Below are positions 1-13,973 of a stretch of DNA of 46,636 nucleotides, in pieces (within the stretch, counting starts at the first letter, position 1; every line of letters begins with the position of its first letter). The stretch is taken from contig JBBCAX010000302.1 of assembly GCA_051382335.1 (NCBI GenBank), positions 1 through 46,636 on the forward strand, written 5' to 3'. The stretch comes from Deltaproteobacteria bacterium TL4. GTDB lineage: Bacteria > SAR324 > NAC60-12. Below the pieces are notes generated by a model that saw only the letters and a program-made list of their open reading frames with translations, was not told the DNA's origin and did not search any database. Both the position numbers and the translations under genes were made by a program.

Positions 1-116
1 AAAGGATTCAAAGATAGAATCATGGAAATTGCCTGTGGGCTACACAACTTTAGATTGAAGTTTCGACCTTGGAAGGCAATGGAAATTCAGGTAGTGTAAA
101 ATCGGCATAATGTCTA
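1..116 (+). mobile_element. 3' end of an IS5-family (DDE_Tnp_4/ISL2-like) transposase plus probable right IS end
   Basis: Frame 1 (1-99) reads KGFKDRIMEIACGLHNFRLKFRPWKAMEIQVV*; MEIACGLHNFR resembles the C-terminus of these transposases. It is followed by ...CATAATGTCTA, after which homology to the PEGA gene family begins at ~116. Confidence 0.65.
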
Positions 117-1411
117 ATGATCATCTGCTCTCAGGAGTTTATCTGCTGAGTGTCCGCAAGGCGTTGTATCTGCCGGTGGAAAACCAAAGGGTCGTGATTG
201 AGGACGAGGGGAAACTCCAGCAGTCGTTCACACTGGACCCCAACTTTGGTGAAATTCGTGTTGAGGCGGAACCGCGAGGCACACAAATTGTGGTAGCCCC
301 GTGTTTCGTCACGGGGAAAGAGAGCGGCGGCGCGACAAAATGTGAGACGGACAACTCCCCCGCGGCGAAACGCGGGGCTACCGAGACCTCTCCCGCGACC
401 CTGCGCCTGGAACCCGGTGATTATCAGTTCAAACTCAGAAAAGACGGCTACGCCCCGCTGGAATTCAAGGTGAGCGTGGCACGGAATAAAAAACAGATGA
501 TCTCTGCCACAGAGGCCACGCTCAGGAAGCTGGAAGGCTTCGTGATGGTGTCTTCCAAACCATACATCGAAGGGGCCAGTGTCTTTGTGGATGGGGAGGA
601 TCAAGGCGAAGTTCCCGCCCAACTGACGCTTGCCGCCGGAGCGCATGAGATTGAGGTCCGCCAGGACGGCAAAGCAGGCAAGGAAACGATCACGCTCAAG
701 GATGGACAAACCTTGACGCTGGAATTGGAACTCAAGGAACAAGCGTCTGGAGATTTTGTCCTGGTCAAAGGCGGCTGCTTCCAGATGGGTGACATCTTTG
801 GAGAAGGAGGAAGTGACGAAAAGCCCGTGCATAAGGTTTGTCTCGATGATTTTTACCTCGGCAAAACGGAAGTAACTCAAGGCCAGTGGCAAAAGGTGAT
901 GGGCAATAATCCTTCAAACTTCAAGAACGGAGACAATTATCCGGTGGAGCAAGTGAGTTGGAATGATATTCAGATTTTTCTGCAACGGCTGAATCAGCAG
1001 GGCGGGAAGTACCGCTTGCCGACGGAAGCGGAATGGGAATACGCCTCCCGGAGCGGAGGAAAAAGGGAACGCTACTCTGGCAGCGACTCAATTGACGGGG
1101 TGGCGTGGTACGATGGCAACTCCGGAAATCAAACCCATGCGGTGGGAACGAAAGCGCCGAATGGCTTGGGTTTGTATGACATGACCGGAAATGTTTGGGA
1201 ATGGGTTCAGGATTGGTACGGTGAAAATTATTACTCACAAAGTCCTTCAACGAACCCCCGTGGACCGTCCAATGGCTCGTACCGTGTCTACCGCGGCGGC
1301 AGTTGGTACTACTTCGCCGGGTACTCGCGTTCGGCGAATCGTTACTACGACTCGCCCGACTGCCGGTACCACTACTTCGGGTTTCGGTTCGCCTTCTCCC
1401 CAGGTCAGTAG
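110..1411 (+). CDS. PEGA-repeat + FGE-sulfatase (C-type lectin fold) protein, likely DGR target; 5'-truncated by the upstream IS
   Basis: PEGA repeats (V.S.P.GA.V.VDG...G.VP..L.L..G.H.IEV) and FGE-domain motifs EVTQGQW, YRLPTEAEWEYA, PNGLGLYDMTGNVWEW, RGGSW and GFR. The ATG at 110 lies in the IS end and the ORF starts mid-PEGA. Confidence 0.85.
   Translation: MSNDHLLSGVYLLSVRKALYLPVENQRVVIEDEGKLQQSFTLDPNFGEIRVEAEPRGTQIVVAPCFVTGKESGGATKCETDNSPAAKRGATETSPATLRLEPGDYQFKLRKDGYAPLEFKVSVARNKKQMISATEATLRKLEGFVMVSSKPYIEGASVFVDGEDQGEVPAQLTLAAGAHEIEVRQDGKAGKETITLKDGQTLTLELELKEQASGDFVLVKGGCFQMGDIFGEGGSDEKPVHKVCLDDFYLGKTEVTQGQWQKVMGNNPSNFKNGDNYPVEQVSWNDIQIFLQRLNQQGGKYRLPTEAEWEYASRSGGKRERYSGSDSIDGVAWYDGNSGNQTHAVGTKAPNGLGLYDMTGNVWEWVQDWYGENYYSQSPSTNPRGPSNGSYRVYRGGSWYYFAGYSRSANRYYDSPDCRYHYFGFRFAFSPGQ
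292..382. repeat. Inverted REP doublet (REPIN-like) embedded in-frame in the PEGA gene
   Basis: GGTAGCCCCGTGTTTCGTCACGGGG (292-316) and CCCCGCGGCGAAACGCGGGGCTACC (358-382) are near reverse complements; each is GTAG plus a hairpin. Confidence 0.8.
1274..1411 (+). other. DGR variable region (VR)-like segment
   Basis: GSYRVYRGGSWYYFAGYSRSANRYYDSPDCRYHYFGFRFA: variable positions are NNC codons (9 TAC plus TTC, GAC, TGC, CAC), while scaffold codons largely avoid A (CGT, CGC, GGC, TCG, GCG, CGG). Confidence 0.75.
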
Positions 1412-1432
1412 GAGGGCAGATTCAGGCAGAGA

Positions 1433-1514
1433 GGAGTTGGGAAGCGTCCGCGCCGGAACGGAACGGAGCGAGGGACGAGCGGAGAGGAGAGGAGGTCGGA
1501 GGGTTCCCAACTCC
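1433..1514. repeat. 11-bp perfect inverted repeat just downstream of the VR (possible DGR cis hairpin/cruciform)
   Basis: GGAGTTGGGAA (1433-1443) and TTCCCAACTCC (1504-1514) enclose a purine-rich 60-nt spacer. Confidence 0.55.
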
Positions 1515-1550
1515 GAGTCAGTGGGAAAAAGAAAAAGGGGGTCAAGGGGG

Positions 1551-1961
1551 CTTGCCGGGAGCTATCAGTTCAGTCTGCGCAAACCCCTGTATCACCCGTT
1601 GGAGAACCAACGGATCGTGATTGAGAATGAAGGACAGCATCGGCATTCCTTCACGCTGAAACCGAAATTCGGGACGCTGACGGTGAGCAGCACCCCTTCG
1701 GAAGCAGAAGTATTTCTGGCGGGGGAGAAAGTGGGTGAGACGCCATACACGAATGAGTATCTGCTCTCTGGGGTGTATCTGCTGAGTGTGCGCAAGTCGA
1801 TGTATCTGCCTGTTGAAAACCAGCGGATCGAAATCAAGGACGAAGGCAGTCACCAACAGTCCTTCACACTGGAAGCGAATTTCGGAGAAGTGAGAATTGA
1901 ATCCGTACCCATTGGAGCAAAAATTGAGGTGATTCGTTTAGATTCACAAGCATTGAAATGA
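1551..1961 (+). pseudogene. Headless PEGA-repeat gene fragment paralogous to the 5' part of 110-1411
   Basis: LAGSYQFSLRKPLYHP...GTLTVSSTPSEAEVFLAGEKVGETP; ~1752-1930 aligns with 116-291. It has no own start codon and ends just before the RAYT cassette. Confidence 0.75.
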
Positions 1962-1980
1962 AATGGATTGCGACAAGTTT

Positions 1981-2000
1981 GTAGTTCCGCCTTTAGGCGG
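1981..2000 (+). repeat. REP (GTAG type), left flank of RAYT
   Basis: GTAGTTCCGCCTTTAGGCGG: GTAG tetranucleotide plus CCGCC/GGCGG stem. Confidence 0.85.
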
Positions 2001-2018
2001 TTTCTAAAGGAATTTAAG

Positions 2019-2621
2019 ATGTATGACTGGCGAAAAATGTCAGAGATCGAACGACAAGAAATTCTGACATTACGACAGAAAAAAGAGGTGCCTTGGCATT
2101 CACCTCCTCATTGGAAACAAGAAGGAGAAATGACGTTTATCATTACCGCCTCCTGTTATGAACATAGTCCGATCATAGGGAAAAATCGTCATCGAATGCT
2201 GGAATGTGAATCAAGTGTGTTGCAAGTTAGTCATAGCTGGTCATCGAAAGTGTTTGCCTGGTGTATTTTGCCTAATCATTATCATCTCTTGGTACAAACC
2301 GGACAAATTAAGAAACTCTTAGGTGAACTGGGACAGTTTCATGGAAGGTCATCCTTCCGATGGAATGGCGAAGACGCTCAAAGAGGACGAAAGGTATGGT
2401 ATCGGAGCACAGATCGCTTCATTCGATCCGATGATCATTTTTTCGCGACATTAAATTATGTGAATCATAATGCCGTAAAACATGGATATGTGGCAAAATG
2501 GCAGGATTGGCCGTTTTCGAGCGCAAAGTCGTTTCTTGAAGAGATAGGACATGCAAAAGCTGAGGAAATTTGGCGATCTTATCCGGTACTGGGGTACGGA
2601 GAGAAATGGGATATTGATTGA
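2019..2621 (+). CDS. REP-associated tyrosine transposase (RAYT, IS200/Y1 HUH family)
   Basis: FIITAS, AWCILPNHYHLLV (HUH), LNYVNHNAVKHG (catalytic Tyr) and WQDWPFSS motifs; AAGGAA RBS before ATG 2019; flanked by inverted REPs. Confidence 0.85.
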   Translation: MYDWRKMSEIERQEILTLRQKKEVPWHSPPHWKQEGEMTFIITASCYEHSPIIGKNRHRMLECESSVLQVSHSWSSKVFAWCILPNHYHLLVQTGQIKKLLGELGQFHGRSSFRWNGEDAQRGRKVWYRSTDRFIRSDDHFFATLNYVNHNAVKHGYVAKWQDWPFSSAKSFLEEIGHAKAEEIWRSYPVLGYGEKWDID

Positions 2622-2633
2622 TGTGATTATTAA

Positions 2634-2653
2634 CCGCCTGAAGGCGGAACTAC
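2634..2653 (-). repeat. REP (GTAG type), right flank of RAYT
   Basis: Reverse complement GTAGTTCCGCCTTCAGGCGG, one mismatch to the left REP. Confidence 0.85.
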
Positions 2654-2690
2654 GAACTGGGATCTAAAACTTTTTAAAGAGGAGGACTTC

Positions 2691-3455
2691 ATGTTGAAAA
2701 ACCCGCTCTTCACAGGGCTGATCTGCTTTTTTATTTTTGGCTGTGCTCCCCAAACTCCTTCACCAGCAAAGTCAGCGTCACAGGAAACAGTAATAGATAG
2801 AAATTCTCAGACTGCCAGCAGCACGGCTGCCACTACAAACACCAACCTGACGACTCCCACCACGCTGCGCCTGGAACCCGGTGACTACCAATTCAAACTC
2901 TCGAAAGAGGGCTACGCCCCGCTGGAATTCAAGGTGAGCGTGGCACGGAACAAAAAACAGACGATCAGCGCCACAGACGCGACCTTGCGGAAGCTGGAAG
3001 GCTTCGTGATGGTTTCCTCGAAGCCGTATGAGGAAGGAGCGCGGGTGTTTGTGGATGGCACGGATCAGGGCGAAGTTCCGGCGCAACTAACGCTTGCCGT
3101 CGGAGCGCATGAGATTGAAGTCCGCAAGGACGGCAAAGCGGGCAAGGAATCCATCACGCTCAAGGATGGACAAACCTTGACGCTGGAACTCGAACTCAAA
3201 GAACAAGCGTCTGGAGATTTTGTCCTGGTCAAAGGCGGCTGCTTCCAGATGGGTGACATCTTTGGAGAAGGAGGAAGTGACGAAAAGCCCGTGCATAAGG
3301 TTTGTCTCGATGATTTTTACCTCGGCAAAACGGAAGTAACTCAAGGCCAGTGGCAAAAGGTGATGGGCAATAATCCTTCAAACTTCAAGAACGGAGACAA
3401 TTATCCGGAGAAAAACAGGACAACCAGTGCGCCAGGCGAAGCTGGCAAGAAATAG
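2691..3455 (+). pseudogene. Lipoprotein PEGA + FGE-domain paralog, truncated at 3408 (lacks the C-terminal lectin/VR half)
   Basis: GAGGAGG RBS and FIFGC lipobox; ~2855-3408 aligns with ~391-944. Identity stops after TTATCCGG (3408) and the ORF runs out into intron sequence. Confidence 0.8.
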
Positions 3456-4186
3456 AGAGTGAAAGTCTCTTACTCGGTAAGGCAGTAGCGTCCCGCCGAG
3501 ACCCCGAGTCATGGGCAGCTTATCCGTAAGGGTAGGTGTTAAGCGTTGACAGGGGAGTGCCTAGGCTCGGTATCGAGCTTCGAAATCAAAATTCCAGGTG
3601 CTGACCTTGTTGGCTGAAGGGGAAGGCCATATCAACCAAAGGCGTTAAGGCGAGCCGCGGTTGGACCAGGCGGAGTCATAGACCCGATGCCTGTGAGGAA
3701 GTTTCTTGACCAAAACCTGGGAGATCCTGAAAACGACTGTCAACGTTTCAAGGGCAGTCGGGCTGGGAAAATTAATCAATAACCCCGGCCTTTACGTTTT
3801 CAGGAAGTCGGACAAGTCCATAGGAGTGATGAAGCAGGCGAACAACGAAATCAATTTGTAGAAAGAAACTAAGGATACAAAAGAAATCAGCGGAGTTTGT
3901 GGAGCAAAGGGACTTGGCTAAGAGGAATTCGGCTTGCCCTCCTGTGTCTGGGACTCAGGGACCGGAAAAATCAGAGAGTGGTTTAAGCAGGATACGCGCT
4001 GCAGCGAAACGGGAACCCAAGCTTCAGTTCAATAATCTCTTAAGGTTGAACTGGGACCACTTCACAGTTCTGGTTAGACTTCACATTCCTTCGGTAAGAA
4101 TCACTCACCCGTATCCGAATCAACGTCTGTTCGTCTGACTCGAAGCAGGAGCCGGATGCGTTAGTAGCGCAAGTCCGGATCTGTGC
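3427..4186 (+). ncRNA. Group II intron RNA (bacterial class E-like) with internally deleted IEP and no domain VI
   Basis: 5' GTGCG at 3427; DI motif GAGAGTGAAAGTCTCT; GGGAAGGC, GGAGATCC and GGAAGTCGGA-type DI-DIII motifs; domain V GAGCCGGATGCGTTAGTAGCGCAAGTCCGGATCT (4149-4182) with AGC triad. Confidence 0.8.
3899..4138 (+). pseudogene. Remnant intron-encoded protein: N-terminus fused in frame to C-terminus
   Basis: SGLSRIRAAAKREPKLQFNNLL (IEP N-terminus) joins RLNWDHF...IPSVRITHPYPNQR (maturase C-terminus) at ~4042/4043; no RT core. The true start is uncertain. Confidence 0.7.
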
Positions 4187-4889
4187 CGAAAGACAATCTC
4201 TATAAGCTTTGGAATCGTATGTCCTCTGGAAGCTATTTCCCTCCACCAGTACGCATGGTAGAGATCCCAAAAAATGATGGAAAAACCACACGTAAGTTAG
4301 GAATTCCCACCGTTTCGGATCGAATTGCTCAGATGGTTGTTAAATTGTATCTGGAGCCGAATGTGGAGCCTTATTTTCATACAGACGCATACGGATACCG
4401 ACCTGGAAAATCCGCAGTGGAAGCCGTAGGCCTTGCCTTGCCCAACAAAGATGTTGGCGTTATGACTATGTGCTGGATTTGGATATACAGGGATTTTTCG
4501 ACAATCTGGATCATGAACTGACCCTGCGACTCATTAGCCAGTACACAGACTGCAAGTGGATTTTACGCTATATTGAACGATGGCTTAAAGCTCCCGTTCA
4601 ACAAGTAGATGGAGTCCTGGTAGATAGGGACAAGGGGACCCCTCAAGGGTCAGTTATTTCACCCTTGATCTCGAATGTGTTTCTGCATTATGCCCTGGAT
4701 GATTGGATGCAAAGGAATTACCCGGAGCATCCCTTTGAGAGGTACGCTGATGACATGGTGGCACACTGCCGAAACGAAGCGGAAGCTCAAAAGCTATGGA
4801 AAGCCATCGAGGATCGGCTCACTGAATGCAAACTGAAACTACATCCTGAGAAGACTAAAATAGTCTACTGCAAGGATGCTTTTAACTAA
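4183..4889 (+). pseudogene. ltrA: Group II intron reverse transcriptase fragment (class D/RmInt1-like), frameshifted and truncated
   Basis: KDNLYKLWNRMSSGSYFPPPV, LGIPTVSDRIAQ, LDLDIQGFFD, GTPQGSVISP, RYADD and HPEKTKIVYCKD motifs. Frameshift from the CCTTG-CCTTG duplication at 4431-4440; stops before FLG and domain X. Confidence 0.85.
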
Positions 4890-5039
4890 GGCCATTGACA
4901 TTCTTGGATATTGAGCATAAGATTCCGACCAAATTTTTGTAAAAAGTTGGTCAGCAAGTATGGAGCGATTGAAGGAACTTTGTGCCGCGCTTTGCAACGC
5001 ATCGGGATGCTCTCTTTGGCTGTGAACCTCAAGCAAGAA

Positions 5040-5201
5040 GAAATTAATGAAAGTAAAGAAAAGGATGTACGGAGAACTCTTTCAGCTCTTGCCCATGCTT
5101 GCCGTTCCGATGGGATCGTTGTTATCAATGCCTTACTGTGGCTACCCAACGGCAAAGTTGACAGAGAAAAACTGATTAGCATAATTGACAAAGAAGGATA
5201 A
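5040..5201 (+). pseudogene. C-terminal scrap of an adenylation (AMP-binding) domain gene
   Basis: ...IVVINALLWLPNGKVDREKL resembles the A10 motif (LP.TPNGKVDR..L). Confidence 0.5.
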
Positions 5202-5225
5202 CACTTCAATTATAGAGGAAATAGC

Positions 5226-7277
5226 ATGATTCTCTCAGCATTGGTTTTAGGTAGTGTTCTATATATTGGTTATAAAGAATTGAATAAGGGGACTGAAAAG
5301 GGCAACTCGTCTCTGCCGCTTAAAAACGACGACGATAAAGCTTTAAGTGCCATAGAAAATAAAATGTCTCAAATGTTTGAGCGGAATACGGAATCCGATG
5401 CTAACAAGTTAGAAGTTTATAAAAAAAAGAGTAAACGCGAAATGATTTCGGTTTCGACAGCACTCGCCTTTTCTGTGGCTGGGTTTATTTATCATCCTTT
5501 TTTTCTACTCAGTGTTCCTTTCATTCTCTATTCGAGTAAGGATGTTTATAAGGCGGCCTTTTTACAGCTTAAAAAAGGTAAAATCAGCGTTAGTACGCTA
5601 GTGAGTATTACCATTACAGGGGTTATGATCCTGGGTCATTTTTTTATCGCCAGCTTACTTATTGTATTCCTGGCCCTGGCCACGCGACTTACCGAACGAA
5701 TGGCTCAAACGTCTAAAAAACAACTGTTTGATGTGTTTGAACAAAAGATTGAGAATGTTTGGATTCTGGTGAAAGGCGTTGAAGTTAGTATTCCTTTTAA
5801 GGAACTGCAAGTGGAGGATTTGGTGGTGGTTAGTGCGGGAGAAACTATTCCCGCAGATGGGACGGTTATCGAAGGCATGGCCAGTATTGATCAGCATATT
5901 TTAACCGGTGAGGCAAGACCTATAGAAAGAGGTGTTGGTGACGAAGTGTTTGCTTCAACCGTGATTTTATCAGGAAAAATTCATGTTAAAGTGGAAAAAA
6001 CAGGTGAAGAAAGTACTGTCGCCAAAATCACAAAAATCTTGAATAGTACAGTGAGTTTTAAGTCAACCACGCAATTACGCGCGGAAAGTTTCTCTGAGCA
6101 TTTAGTGAAGCCTGCCATGGTTGCCGGTTGTTTCGCGGTACCAATTTTGGGTTTTACTAGCGCTTTAGCCGTTCTGAACACTCACCCTAAAAACAAGATA
6201 ATGATTCTTGCTCCGCTGAGTATTATGAACCATCTCAATTTGGCTTCCAGGCAAGGAATTCTTGTTAAGGATGGACGTTCTTTAGAATTGCTGGATCAAG
6301 TAGATACCATCGTTTTTGATAAAACCGGCACCTTGACAGAGGAACAACCGCACGTAGGAGCTATTCACTGTTGTGCGCATTATACCGAACACCAAGTCCT
6401 GACTTATGCGGCGGCGGCTGAACATAAACAGAGCCACCCTCTTGCTAAAGCGATTCAACAAGAAGCGAAAAATCGTCAATTAAATGTCCCCCTTATCGAT
6501 GACAGTGAGTATAAAATAGGTTATGGACTCATTGTTGAAATAGAGGGACAAACCATCCATGTCGGAAGTACTCGTTTTATGAAAGTGGAAGGTATGACGA
6601 TCCCGGTTTCCATCAGACAGCAAGAACAACGTTCTCATGAAGAAGGAAACACGCTCATCCTGATCGCCGTTGATCAGCAGGTCGTTGGTTCGATTGAATT
6701 GATACCGACCGTGCGTTCAGAAGCAAAAAACATGATCCGCCTGTTAAAACAACGCTCCAAAATCAAAACCACTATTATGATTTCCGGAGATAATGAGATC
6801 CCAACGAAAAAATTAGCGGAGGATCTTGGCATCGATTCATATTATGCGGAAACGTTGCCAGAAGAAAAAGCGAATATTATTGAGAAATTGCAACAACAAG
6901 GTCATTTTATTTGTTATGTGGGAGATGGCATCAATGATTCGATCGCACTCAAAAAATCGCAAGTCTCTGTGTCTTTGAGTGGTGCTTCCGCGATTGCTAT
7001 CGATACGGCGCAAATTATTTTAATGGATAAAGGCTTAAATCATCTTAACTTATTGTTTGAGCTGGCTGATGCTTTCAATGCTAATATGAATACGACCTTT
7101 AAAATTCTGTTGACTCCCGCGATTATTGGCGTAAGTGGGGCCTTTTTATTCGGGTTTGGTATCGCCTCCACTGTTATCTTAAATATGACGGGGTTAGCTT
7201 TCGGCTTGGGCAATACGATGTTACCCTTGTTAAAACAGTCTAAGCCACCTGTTATAGAATCACAAATATTGATCTGA
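5226..7277 (+). CDS. P1B-like (heavy-metal-type) P-type ATPase lacking the canonical CPx motif
   Basis: IPADG, LTGE, FDKTGTLT, SHPLA and YVGDGIND motifs; LNTHP sits where CPC/CPH is expected. Confidence 0.85.
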   Translation: MILSALVLGSVLYIGYKELNKGTEKGNSSLPLKNDDDKALSAIENKMSQMFERNTESDANKLEVYKKKSKREMISVSTALAFSVAGFIYHPFFLLSVPFILYSSKDVYKAAFLQLKKGKISVSTLVSITITGVMILGHFFIASLLIVFLALATRLTERMAQTSKKQLFDVFEQKIENVWILVKGVEVSIPFKELQVEDLVVVSAGETIPADGTVIEGMASIDQHILTGEARPIERGVGDEVFASTVILSGKIHVKVEKTGEESTVAKITKILNSTVSFKSTTQLRAESFSEHLVKPAMVAGCFAVPILGFTSALAVLNTHPKNKIMILAPLSIMNHLNLASRQGILVKDGRSLELLDQVDTIVFDKTGTLTEEQPHVGAIHCCAHYTEHQVLTYAAAAEHKQSHPLAKAIQQEAKNRQLNVPLIDDSEYKIGYGLIVEIEGQTIHVGSTRFMKVEGMTIPVSIRQQEQRSHEEGNTLILIAVDQQVVGSIELIPTVRSEAKNMIRLLKQRSKIKTTIMISGDNEIPTKKLAEDLGIDSYYAETLPEEKANIIEKLQQQGHFICYVGDGINDSIALKKSQVSVSLSGASAIAIDTAQIILMDKGLNHLNLLFELADAFNANMNTTFKILLTPAIIGVSGAFLFGFGIASTVILNMTGLAFGLGNTMLPLLKQSKPPVIESQILI

Positions 7278-12821: not shown

Positions 12822-13973
12822 CTAATAGAATATTTTTATACCGCCACCTATCATTCTTGATATTCGATCTTCATCAGTGGGGAGGGTCGAAGTTTGGTTT
12901 GTGTAAAAAAATTGGGATTGCAGCCCTTTTTCTATATCATAGTTATAAAGAAGATTTGAATATAGATCTTTTGTTTCGGCACCTGCATCATCTGTAATAA
13001 CACTGGCACCCGTTATGACCACACTACCATTCTGGCCCACACCTATCGTTACCTGAAATGCTGTATCAGCGACGTCAAAGCTTGTCGTGCCATCTTCGTC
13101 GTAGTCTAGTGTTCTGCTTGAGTAGTCAACAGAGAAAGAGTTACGTTCAGATAAATGATATTTTATGCCAGCATGGTTATTAGAGCGAGCCAGTTTCTGC
13201 TGATCACCTGGAATGTCTGGGTTATCCACATAATTCTCATATTTTCCTTCTCCTTGTATGAGGCTCAATCTAAACTCCGTCGAGCCAATTCGGCCCATCG
13301 ACCCCAGTTGCAGCGACGTTCCAGTATTCAAACCAATGGTATCCCCATCAAAAACTGTACCGCATATTTCAATATCTTTAACTATTCGGTAGCGCAACGA
13401 AACCCCAACATTTTTGGCTCTGCCAGTGTTGGTCCCATATTTACCGAATTGCGTTTCACCGGCTATACCACCGGCTCCTCTGGCAAAATTATATCCCTCT
13501 TCAGGAGCTTGCTTTCCTAAAATAAGAGTAGTCTTATCAAGCTTGGTGATAGTGGTAATTTGATCAATCCAAAAGTCATGGTGGTCCCCTTTATCCGTTC
13601 TTCCCCCCTGACCAAAAGCATTATACGTATTGGCATAGATTGATACAAATCCAATTGTATTGCCACGTTTTACAGTGGGTTTAAAGTAAACTTCGTTAAT
13701 TGCGACAACGTGATCCTCCTGTTGTCCTGATATGATTTGTCCTGATGCATCCGTTGCAGGAAGTGCCCTGGGATTAGCTGAATTATAAGTTGCGGCATCC
13801 CCATACTTACCGATCCCTATATAGGTGGCAACTACACCTTTAACATAAAAGTTACCTATCGGTTTTTCCATTACCTTTTCCGACTCCTTTTCCGACTCTG
13901 CCATAGCACAAGGTACGACAAGGGCGACAAAAATCGCGACCATTAACAATTTTTCTAGTTTTCTTCTTACCAT
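12822..13973 (-). CDS. Porin-like outer-membrane beta-barrel protein
   Basis: Signal peptide (...VVPCAMA), alternating beta-strand pattern, C-terminal IKIFY; GAGG RBS before ATG 13973. Confidence 0.6.
   Translation of the reverse strand: MVRRKLEKLLMVAIFVALVVPCAMAESEKESEKVMEKPIGNFYVKGVVATYIGIGKYGDAATYNSANPRALPATDASGQIISGQQEDHVVAINEVYFKPTVKRGNTIGFVSIYANTYNAFGQGGRTDKGDHHDFWIDQITTITKLDKTTLILGKQAPEEGYNFARGAGGIAGETQFGKYGTNTGRAKNVGVSLRYRIVKDIEICGTVFDGDTIGLNTGTSLQLGSMGRIGSTEFRLSLIQGEGKYENYVDNPDIPGDQQKLARSNNHAGIKYHLSERNSFSVDYSSRTLDYDEDGTTSFDVADTAFQVTIGVGQNGSVVITGASVITDDAGAETKDLYSNLLYNYDIEKGLQSQFFYTNQTSTLPTDEDRISRMIGGGIKIFY

Follow-up and report, generated by a model that had tools for sequence, protein, structure and literature searches.

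The window analysed here, 46,636 nucleotides, is contig C302 of the 6.59-Mb assembly of Deltaproteobacteria bacterium TL4, which comprises 445 contigs. A lectin-like gene near its left end finishes in a Tyr-rich variable stretch, and the locus raises the question of what wrote these codons and whether the writing continues. The gene and its variable part are:

110..1411, plus strand: target ORF of 433 aa with PEGA repeats and an FGE-type C-type lectin (CLec) fold (Pfam PF08308, PF03781), 5'-truncated and without a signal peptide
1274..1387, plus strand: variable repeat (VR), with variable positions 1280 to 1377; 20 of 35 template adenines changed and 1 of 79 other bases (T to C at 1326), Fisher p 6e-12

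The target ORF contains Pfam PEGA and FGE-sulfatase domains, and its best PDB match is Treponema TvpA (2y3c, E 2e-36), in agreement with its initial annotation as a PEGA/CLec gene. The VR appears to sit at the C-terminus of the CLec-fold protein, as judged by PF03781 and by the TvpA alignment, which spans the VR. The ORF ends with positions 1274-1411, 46 codons of which the last is the stop. The VR codons opposite A-containing template codons are TAC (nine), TTC (two), GAC (two) and one each of TGC, CAC, GGC, GGG, AGT and AAT, a listing that bears out the NNC codons (nine TAC plus TTC, GAC, TGC and CAC) first read in these last 46 codons.

We found the template on the minus strand of contig C207, from position 13077, by searching the whole assembly with BLASTN and with a scan that treats template adenines as wildcards. 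The counts given above for the VR refer to its comparison with this template over 114 bp. In the scan, the C207 sequence showed 2 non-A mismatches in 117 bp and the next TR-like sequence 20, while six codon-shuffled VRs, used as controls, gave 28-30 non-A mismatches in 114 bp at best. The template is non-coding and AAC-rich and lies behind a remnant of a DGR RT; its codons permit about 1e20 amino-acid variants over 19 codons. We consider it nearly certain that the VR in the window was written by a DGR. The window itself has neither a TR nor a DGR RT, as had been stated, and the RT pieces at 4183-4889 follow the 5' end of a group II intron. The template predicted from the VR agrees by eye with C207 except at two specified positions (VR positions 18 and 22), showing that a template can be read off one variable repeat. 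An adenine-differing copy next to a DGR RT and avd had been anticipated elsewhere in the genome; the copy lies beside a DGR RT remnant as foreseen, but the accompanying gene is HRDC, not avd.

Two further remote targets, on C394 and C3, share the VR and its 3' hairpin, in line with the suggestion that other genes might do so. In the C394 target, 21 of 35 template adenines and 2 of 79 other bases are changed. The C3 target is a frameshifted gene with changes at 14 of 27 adenines and 1 of 66 other bases in the 93 bp that precede a 2-bp deletion. The VRs of C302, C394 and C3 each match the C207 TR only, among six TRs scanned. C302 and C394 are identical over the 69 bp before the VR and differ within it at 21 adenine positions and 1 other, a pattern close to the expectation that paralogs would differ only at template adenines. 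In both, VR position 53 (1326) shows the non-A T-to-C change and template A18 is replaced by C; C3 equals C207 at both positions.

The region from the end of the VR onward holds two elements:

1378..1411, plus strand: predicted IMH, the constant 3' end of the repeat, differing from the template IMH* at 1388, 1394 and from 1404 on (VR-TR comparison)
1433..1514, no strand assigned: post-VR inverted repeat with an 18-bp stem (1433-1450 / 1497-1514) and a 46-nt purine-rich loop (inverted-repeat search, DNA fold)

Of 31 related TR-VR pairs examined, 27 have the TR motif at the IMH site; in all 27 the VR differs from the TR there, 9 of them by a C-to-G switch as at 1404. The inverted repeat, described initially as 11 bp, is perfect at 1433-1443 / 1504-1514; the extended arms, separated by 46 nt, span 18 bp and match at 89%. 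Its DNA fold has z = -3.77, and none of 200 shuffles was equally stable. In this genome the stem-loop occurs solely behind the three targets, all of which have it. Rfam gave no match over the element in eight loci at E <= 0.5. Rfam DUF805 RNA matches are found near DGR targets at L143 2526-4056 and L163 240-308.

We then investigated the C207 cassette, which, to judge from its sequence, is a broken Treponema-like HRDC DGR without avd. The frame upstream of the TR consists of the N-terminus of an HRDC gene, with a TGA at codon 43, joined after codon 89 to the last 87 residues of a DGR RT. This remnant corresponds to residues ~248-334 of the closest intact RT (P0002, 334 aa; source label 'SAR324 cluster bacterium') and is 90% identical to it. 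No other part of the C207-clade RT was found above 45% identity in all 445 contigs, and the assembly yielded no intact cognate DGR RT with a catalytic YxDD; contig ends interrupt most of the DGR RTs present. The closest intact loci (L099, L100 and L101) have the order target-HRDC-RT-TR, with HRDC overlapping RT and the TR following a few bases on. Comparison with these relatives implies a deletion of 937-952 bp on C207, where AAGGA at the joint fits both parent frames. A 142-bp gap with a palindromic repeat separates the RT stop from the TR on C207. The HRDC remnant is 64-67% identical to the HRDC genes of L099 and L100, with PF00570 on L099. Among 80 metagenome loci of the C207 RT clade, HRDC was matched in 69 and avd in none (tblastn with two avd queries, which distant avd genes could escape). 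C207 carries no avd; the genome has four avd matches. The spacer 3' of the C207 TR is similar to those of L099 and L100 (scores 73 and 76, shuffle maximum 28), and scores 17-20 against four other cassettes of the genome. The C207 TR region was matched, partially, in 1 of 40 related genomes; a search of 87 further genomes from the phylum yielded no intact C207-clade RT at high identity (best 35-42%). The cassette has a close intact relative in L100 (974-3811), whose target is a NACHT/STAND NTPase plus lectin protein, not a PEGA protein; therefore, the same DGR clade serves surface-type and sensor-type targets.

The closest known system is the Treponema denticola DGR (PMC4891356; architecture C, target category b in PMC5758913), which likewise has an FGE-type CLec target and an HRDC gene overlapping RT. 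It also shares several remote targets and targets that remain after core loss (PMC4891356). In Treponema, however, HRDC lies between TR and RT, unlike the target-HRDC-RT-TR order of the intact relatives here; the PEGA stalk and the survival of the TR beside a deleted RT are further differences. Targets left over after core loss have a precedent in section 11 of PMC4891356, and remote targets are reported for 45 of 372 DGRs in PMC5758913. Remote targets, leftover targets and Tyr bias are all already published, and the core of this case is a clean example of known biology.

The target gene and its surroundings are also damaged:

1..118, plus strand: right end of an insertion sequence (IS), with the transposase C-terminus at 1-99 and a terminal inverted repeat at about 101-118, recognised by identity to C292:586-703; it provides the ATG at 110
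293..381, no strand assigned: REP-like palindromic doublet, an in-frame insertion within the target gene (its inverted ends are visible in the sequence, and C374 has similar palindromes)
1551..1935, plus strand: PEGA-only fragment of a second paralog, fused directly 3' of the hairpin (Pfam PEGA; 78% DNA identity to 116-253)
2691..3408, plus strand: third paralog with a lipoprotein-like N-terminus, PEGA and the first quarter of the lectin domain, ending before its own VR close to 3427, where a group II intron begins (a 208-bp stretch is identical to 737-944)

In this assembly, the target gene on C302 is by all appearances 5'-truncated, not an intact target gene, because its ATG at 110 lies in the IS end, inside the inverted repeat. 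Positions 1-118 are 100% identical to C292:586-703, and other DNA follows on C292. Left ends of the IS with a matching inverted repeat were found three times (C228, C245 and C323), in no case with a PEGA gene ahead of them. The alignment of the target protein begins at residue 402 of an 840-aa paralog on C153, and the missing N-terminal part was not found in this one assembly. By the usual rules for signal peptides, the paralogs on C153, on C3 and at 2691 have hydrophobic, signal-like N-termini, and the target copy has no such start; the PEGA-lectin paralog family is probably exported. The joins around the target gene may be mis-assembled, since two gene fronts and three continuations carry one 208-bp exact repeat (737-944 / 3201-3408). 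The 89-bp palindromic doublet at 293-381 lies in the linker at which the neighbouring paralog is broken by a Y1 transposase block (about 1940-2860). The Y1 (RAYT-like) transposase itself lies at 1968-2621, and the inverted palindromes flanking it (about 1980-2000 and 2635-2657) have about 50 BLAST matches across the genome. The group II intron 5' end at 3427-4889 has a frameshifted, truncated RT, and related intron copies on C392, C46 and C148 show a similar 10-base 5' flank.

How the VR came about can be explained in other ways. The many FGE-type paralogs in the genome might suggest that the VR resembles the TR through ordinary paralogy or codon bias and that no retrohoming took place. This is refuted by the adenine-wildcard scan, by the adenine specificity (Fisher p 6e-12) and by the shuffled controls (28-30 non-A mismatches), and a non-coding, AAC-rich template behind a DGR RT remnant also stands against it; we give it practically no credence. 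It is also conceivable, though most improbable, that a different DGR RT encoded in the genome, such as that of the intact HRDC-avd-RT cassette on C153, which likewise targets a PEGA plus lectin gene, works in trans on the C207 TR RNA and that diversification continues. However, the C153 and C207 RTs are 39% identical, the spacers 3' of their TRs are unrelated, and the 3' flank of the C153 target differs and has neither stem nor motif. The VR shows 20 non-A mismatches in 117 bp to the C153 TR, so it was not written from that TR. Rescue by the intact C153 RT is further argued against because the C207 spacer resembles those of L099 and L100 and not those of the other cassettes.

Alternatively, the target might still be served by a sister cassette that is intact but absent from the assembly and carries a TR differing slightly from that of C207, which would be a dead duplicate. 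With the genome in 445 contigs and contig breaks running through most DGR RTs, such a cassette could have gone unassembled. The true template of C302 and C394 may be another copy, since they have in common the non-A base at 1326 and the C at A18, both absent in C3. The two targets share the change at position 53 and yet differ at 21 adenine positions on both sides of it, and near-identical duplicate TRs of another DGR are kept in this genome (C156 and C58). According to PMC12875486, non-A positions are overwritten efficiently by cDNA in BPP-1; because non-A markers travel with the cDNA there, the T-to-C change at position 53 suggests an unassembled sister TR, a TR change at a later time or paralog gene conversion. 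The last two account for the shared base equally well. Furthermore, no second TR, HRDC or RT fragment of the clade was found at any contig end, and the completeness of the assembly is 100%, as measured by marker genes only. We regard a surviving sister cassette as unlikely, though less so than rescue from C153.

We conclude that the VR was most likely written in trans by a Treponema-like, avd-less HRDC DGR that has since probably died, a reading to which we assign a probability of about 0.68. That the DGR system is dead is likely in itself because most of the RT gene is deleted, and the target and VRs are then likely a frozen record. The nearly perfect state of the C207 TR and spacer speaks against a dead system, fitting recent loss or continued use. 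The initial proposal of diversification in trans by a remote DGR holds in that the template is on another contig; its present-tense activity on an intact surface protein does not, the RT core being deleted and the target lacking its 5' end. An active system cannot be taken for granted from a VR that looks perfect.

In the reading we prefer, the DGR RT would have made cDNA from a TR-containing RNA, misincorporating where the template has adenine. With the DNA stem-loop downstream as a guide, this cDNA would have gone in at the IMH of each target in place of the existing VR, altering as many as 19 codons for the lectin's ligand face. Tyr would have built up from AAC-to-TAC as the commonest error, possibly aided by selection. 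A later microhomology deletion may have fused HRDC codon 89 to RT codon ~248, a stop would have arisen in HRDC and a palindromic element landed between RT and TR. Insertions of IS, REP and intron elements would have broken the targets, and the VRs would then likely have been fixed.

For comparison of the Tyr content, 29 of 84 related loci provided 31 distinct TR-VR pairs. AAY codons in these pairs most often became TAY (87 of 418, 21%). The C302 VR has TAC at 8 of 14 (binomial 0.003, with codons treated as independent), a share matched by 1 of the 31 pairs; the C394 VR has it at 1 of 14. First-position adenines of C302 are changed in 16 of 18 codons and second-position adenines in 3 of 16. As described in PMC12875486, the BPP-1 RT converts AAC mostly to Tyr, Ser and Asp, and the comparison with antibodies is already drawn there. 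The Tyr enrichment of the C302 VR is thus largely the known AAC-to-TAC bias, at its high end, although the high share may reflect selection. The idea of an antibody-like, Tyr-rich surface survives insofar as the VR is Tyr-rich, but the richness is mostly this published bias and holds for the C302 target only.

The loop of the post-VR element contains two small predicted hairpins:

1468..1480, plus strand: predicted mini-hairpin of two outer pairs, two sheared G.A pairs, one G-C pair and a GGA triloop (sheared geometry inferred, not computed)
1453-1461, plus strand: second hairpin with a GAA triloop

The 16-mer GAGYGAGGGACGARCG in this loop has exactly three copies in the genome, one per target. 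In 11 of 31 related pairs an exact copy of its 9-base core follows the VR at a distance of no more than 190 nt; none of the 31 TRs is followed by one. There are 21 plus-strand core copies in the 84 RT loci, 16 of them within 200 nt of a detected lectin end; the motif is missing behind two thirds of the related VRs. The outer stems around the loop vary in sequence between loci. The two bases flanking the core on each side pair at both positions in 14 of 15 distinct contexts, the exception (L096) not lying behind a VR; the inner flanking pair occurs as C:G, T:A, G:C and T:G. The genome background for the flanking pairs is 12 of 38 Watson-Crick. In an alignment of 16 related rows, picked for containing the core, whose invariance is therefore by construction, 48 of 48 cells pair, 8 changing on both sides; none of 500 shuffles reached the score and slid controls gave 4-42%. 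L096, C394 and six near-identical copies (L144, L150, L151, L160, L163 and the second L143 copy) were left out of this alignment. With near-duplicates removed, a strict sheared-hairpin pattern is found behind 6 of 26 VRs, on no opposite strand and behind no TR, with 0.11 expected from shuffles. The simplest predicted fold of the core is GC-GA-G-[GGA]-C-GA-GC, a GNA triloop on two sheared G.A pairs. Sheared G.A pairs are stable in a DNA stem and are not modelled by ViennaRNA.

The motif is not confined to DGRs. DGR genes (lectin, RT, HRDC, avd) were found within up to 1.5 kb at 0 of 56 other 16-mer loci (53 viral stretches and 3 genomes), and we rejected a DGR-specific motif on this ground. Because of this result, and because the flanking bases could also pair in 32 of 38 distinct viral contexts, the motif looks like a general single-strand DNA module. 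A general enrichment of GNA triloops behind VRs was likewise rejected: the sense strand has 27 and the antisense strand 4, with 9.8 in shuffles, yet TRs have 17 (p 0.055), and the excess is not specific. In distant lectin-domain relatives, among the matches listed, the 9-mer occurs five times on plus strands in 832 kb, once behind a lectin. Another genome of the phylum has the same 16-mer in the loop of a long imperfect stem (L235 1472-1549), which presumably resembles an integron attC site.

A comparison can be made with the target site of BPP-1, for which PMC3240598 describes a constant IMH differing from IMH*, a GC-rich inverted repeat about 20 bp past the stop, a variable stem and a conserved purine motif in the sense-strand loop, all as here. 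The BPP-1-type hairpin has a 7-10-bp stem and a 4-nt GRNA loop; two extra loop bases abolish homing, and the loop sequence matters while the stem sequence does not (PMC3240598). The post-VR element falls outside this definition, having an 18-bp stem, a 46-nt loop with an inner covarying mini-hairpin, and no avd. The GNA triloop is very stable in DNA (PMC3201870), and, as in the d(GNA) mini-hairpins of PMC3201870 and PMC13037366, a sheared G.A pair above a short GC stem could close the GGA loop. Unlike those, the hairpin here has a G:C closing pair, not the more stable C:G, and two further G.A pairs in the stem. We found no link between d(GNA) triloop mini-hairpins and DGRs in the literature. 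Nor did the open literature on DGR hairpins and loops, sheared GA/GNA, mini-hairpins and SAR324 DGRs give a description of the post-VR element; Table S1 of PMC5758913, a list of inverted repeats, may bear on the novelty of the element. The covarying predicted mini-hairpin in the 3' element looks like the new part of this case.

Our suggestion that the mini-hairpin is a functional target signal is tentative. It can be extended, at a similarly low level of confidence, to a clade of avd-less HRDC DGRs that might mark its targets by a long stem plus a single-strand DNA mini-hairpin with sheared G.A pairs and a GGA triloop, and not by a GRNA tetraloop. Other mobile DNA might be the source of this module, with HRDC or the RT as its reader, and copying IMH plus element behind any lectin gene might recruit it as a remote target. 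The open DGR literature yielded no test of target recognition by avd-less HRDC DGRs. The covarying 13-base motif is a precise thing to mutate and a candidate HRDC ligand.

The genome holds other DGRs. C153 (L004), at 1116-6055, has a complete DGR in the order target, HRDC, avd, RT, TR, with an 840-aa PEGA plus lectin target and an RT of 341 aa; between its TR and VR, 12 of 23 adenines and no other base are changed over 84 bp. There are further lectin-type TRs or RT pieces, at least five in number (C156, C58, C208, C133, C387, C68, C60, C54 and C69), most of them cut by contig ends. The TR of C156 and C58 has remote targets on C60 and C54. Counting C135 and C34, the genome has at least three DGR lineages.
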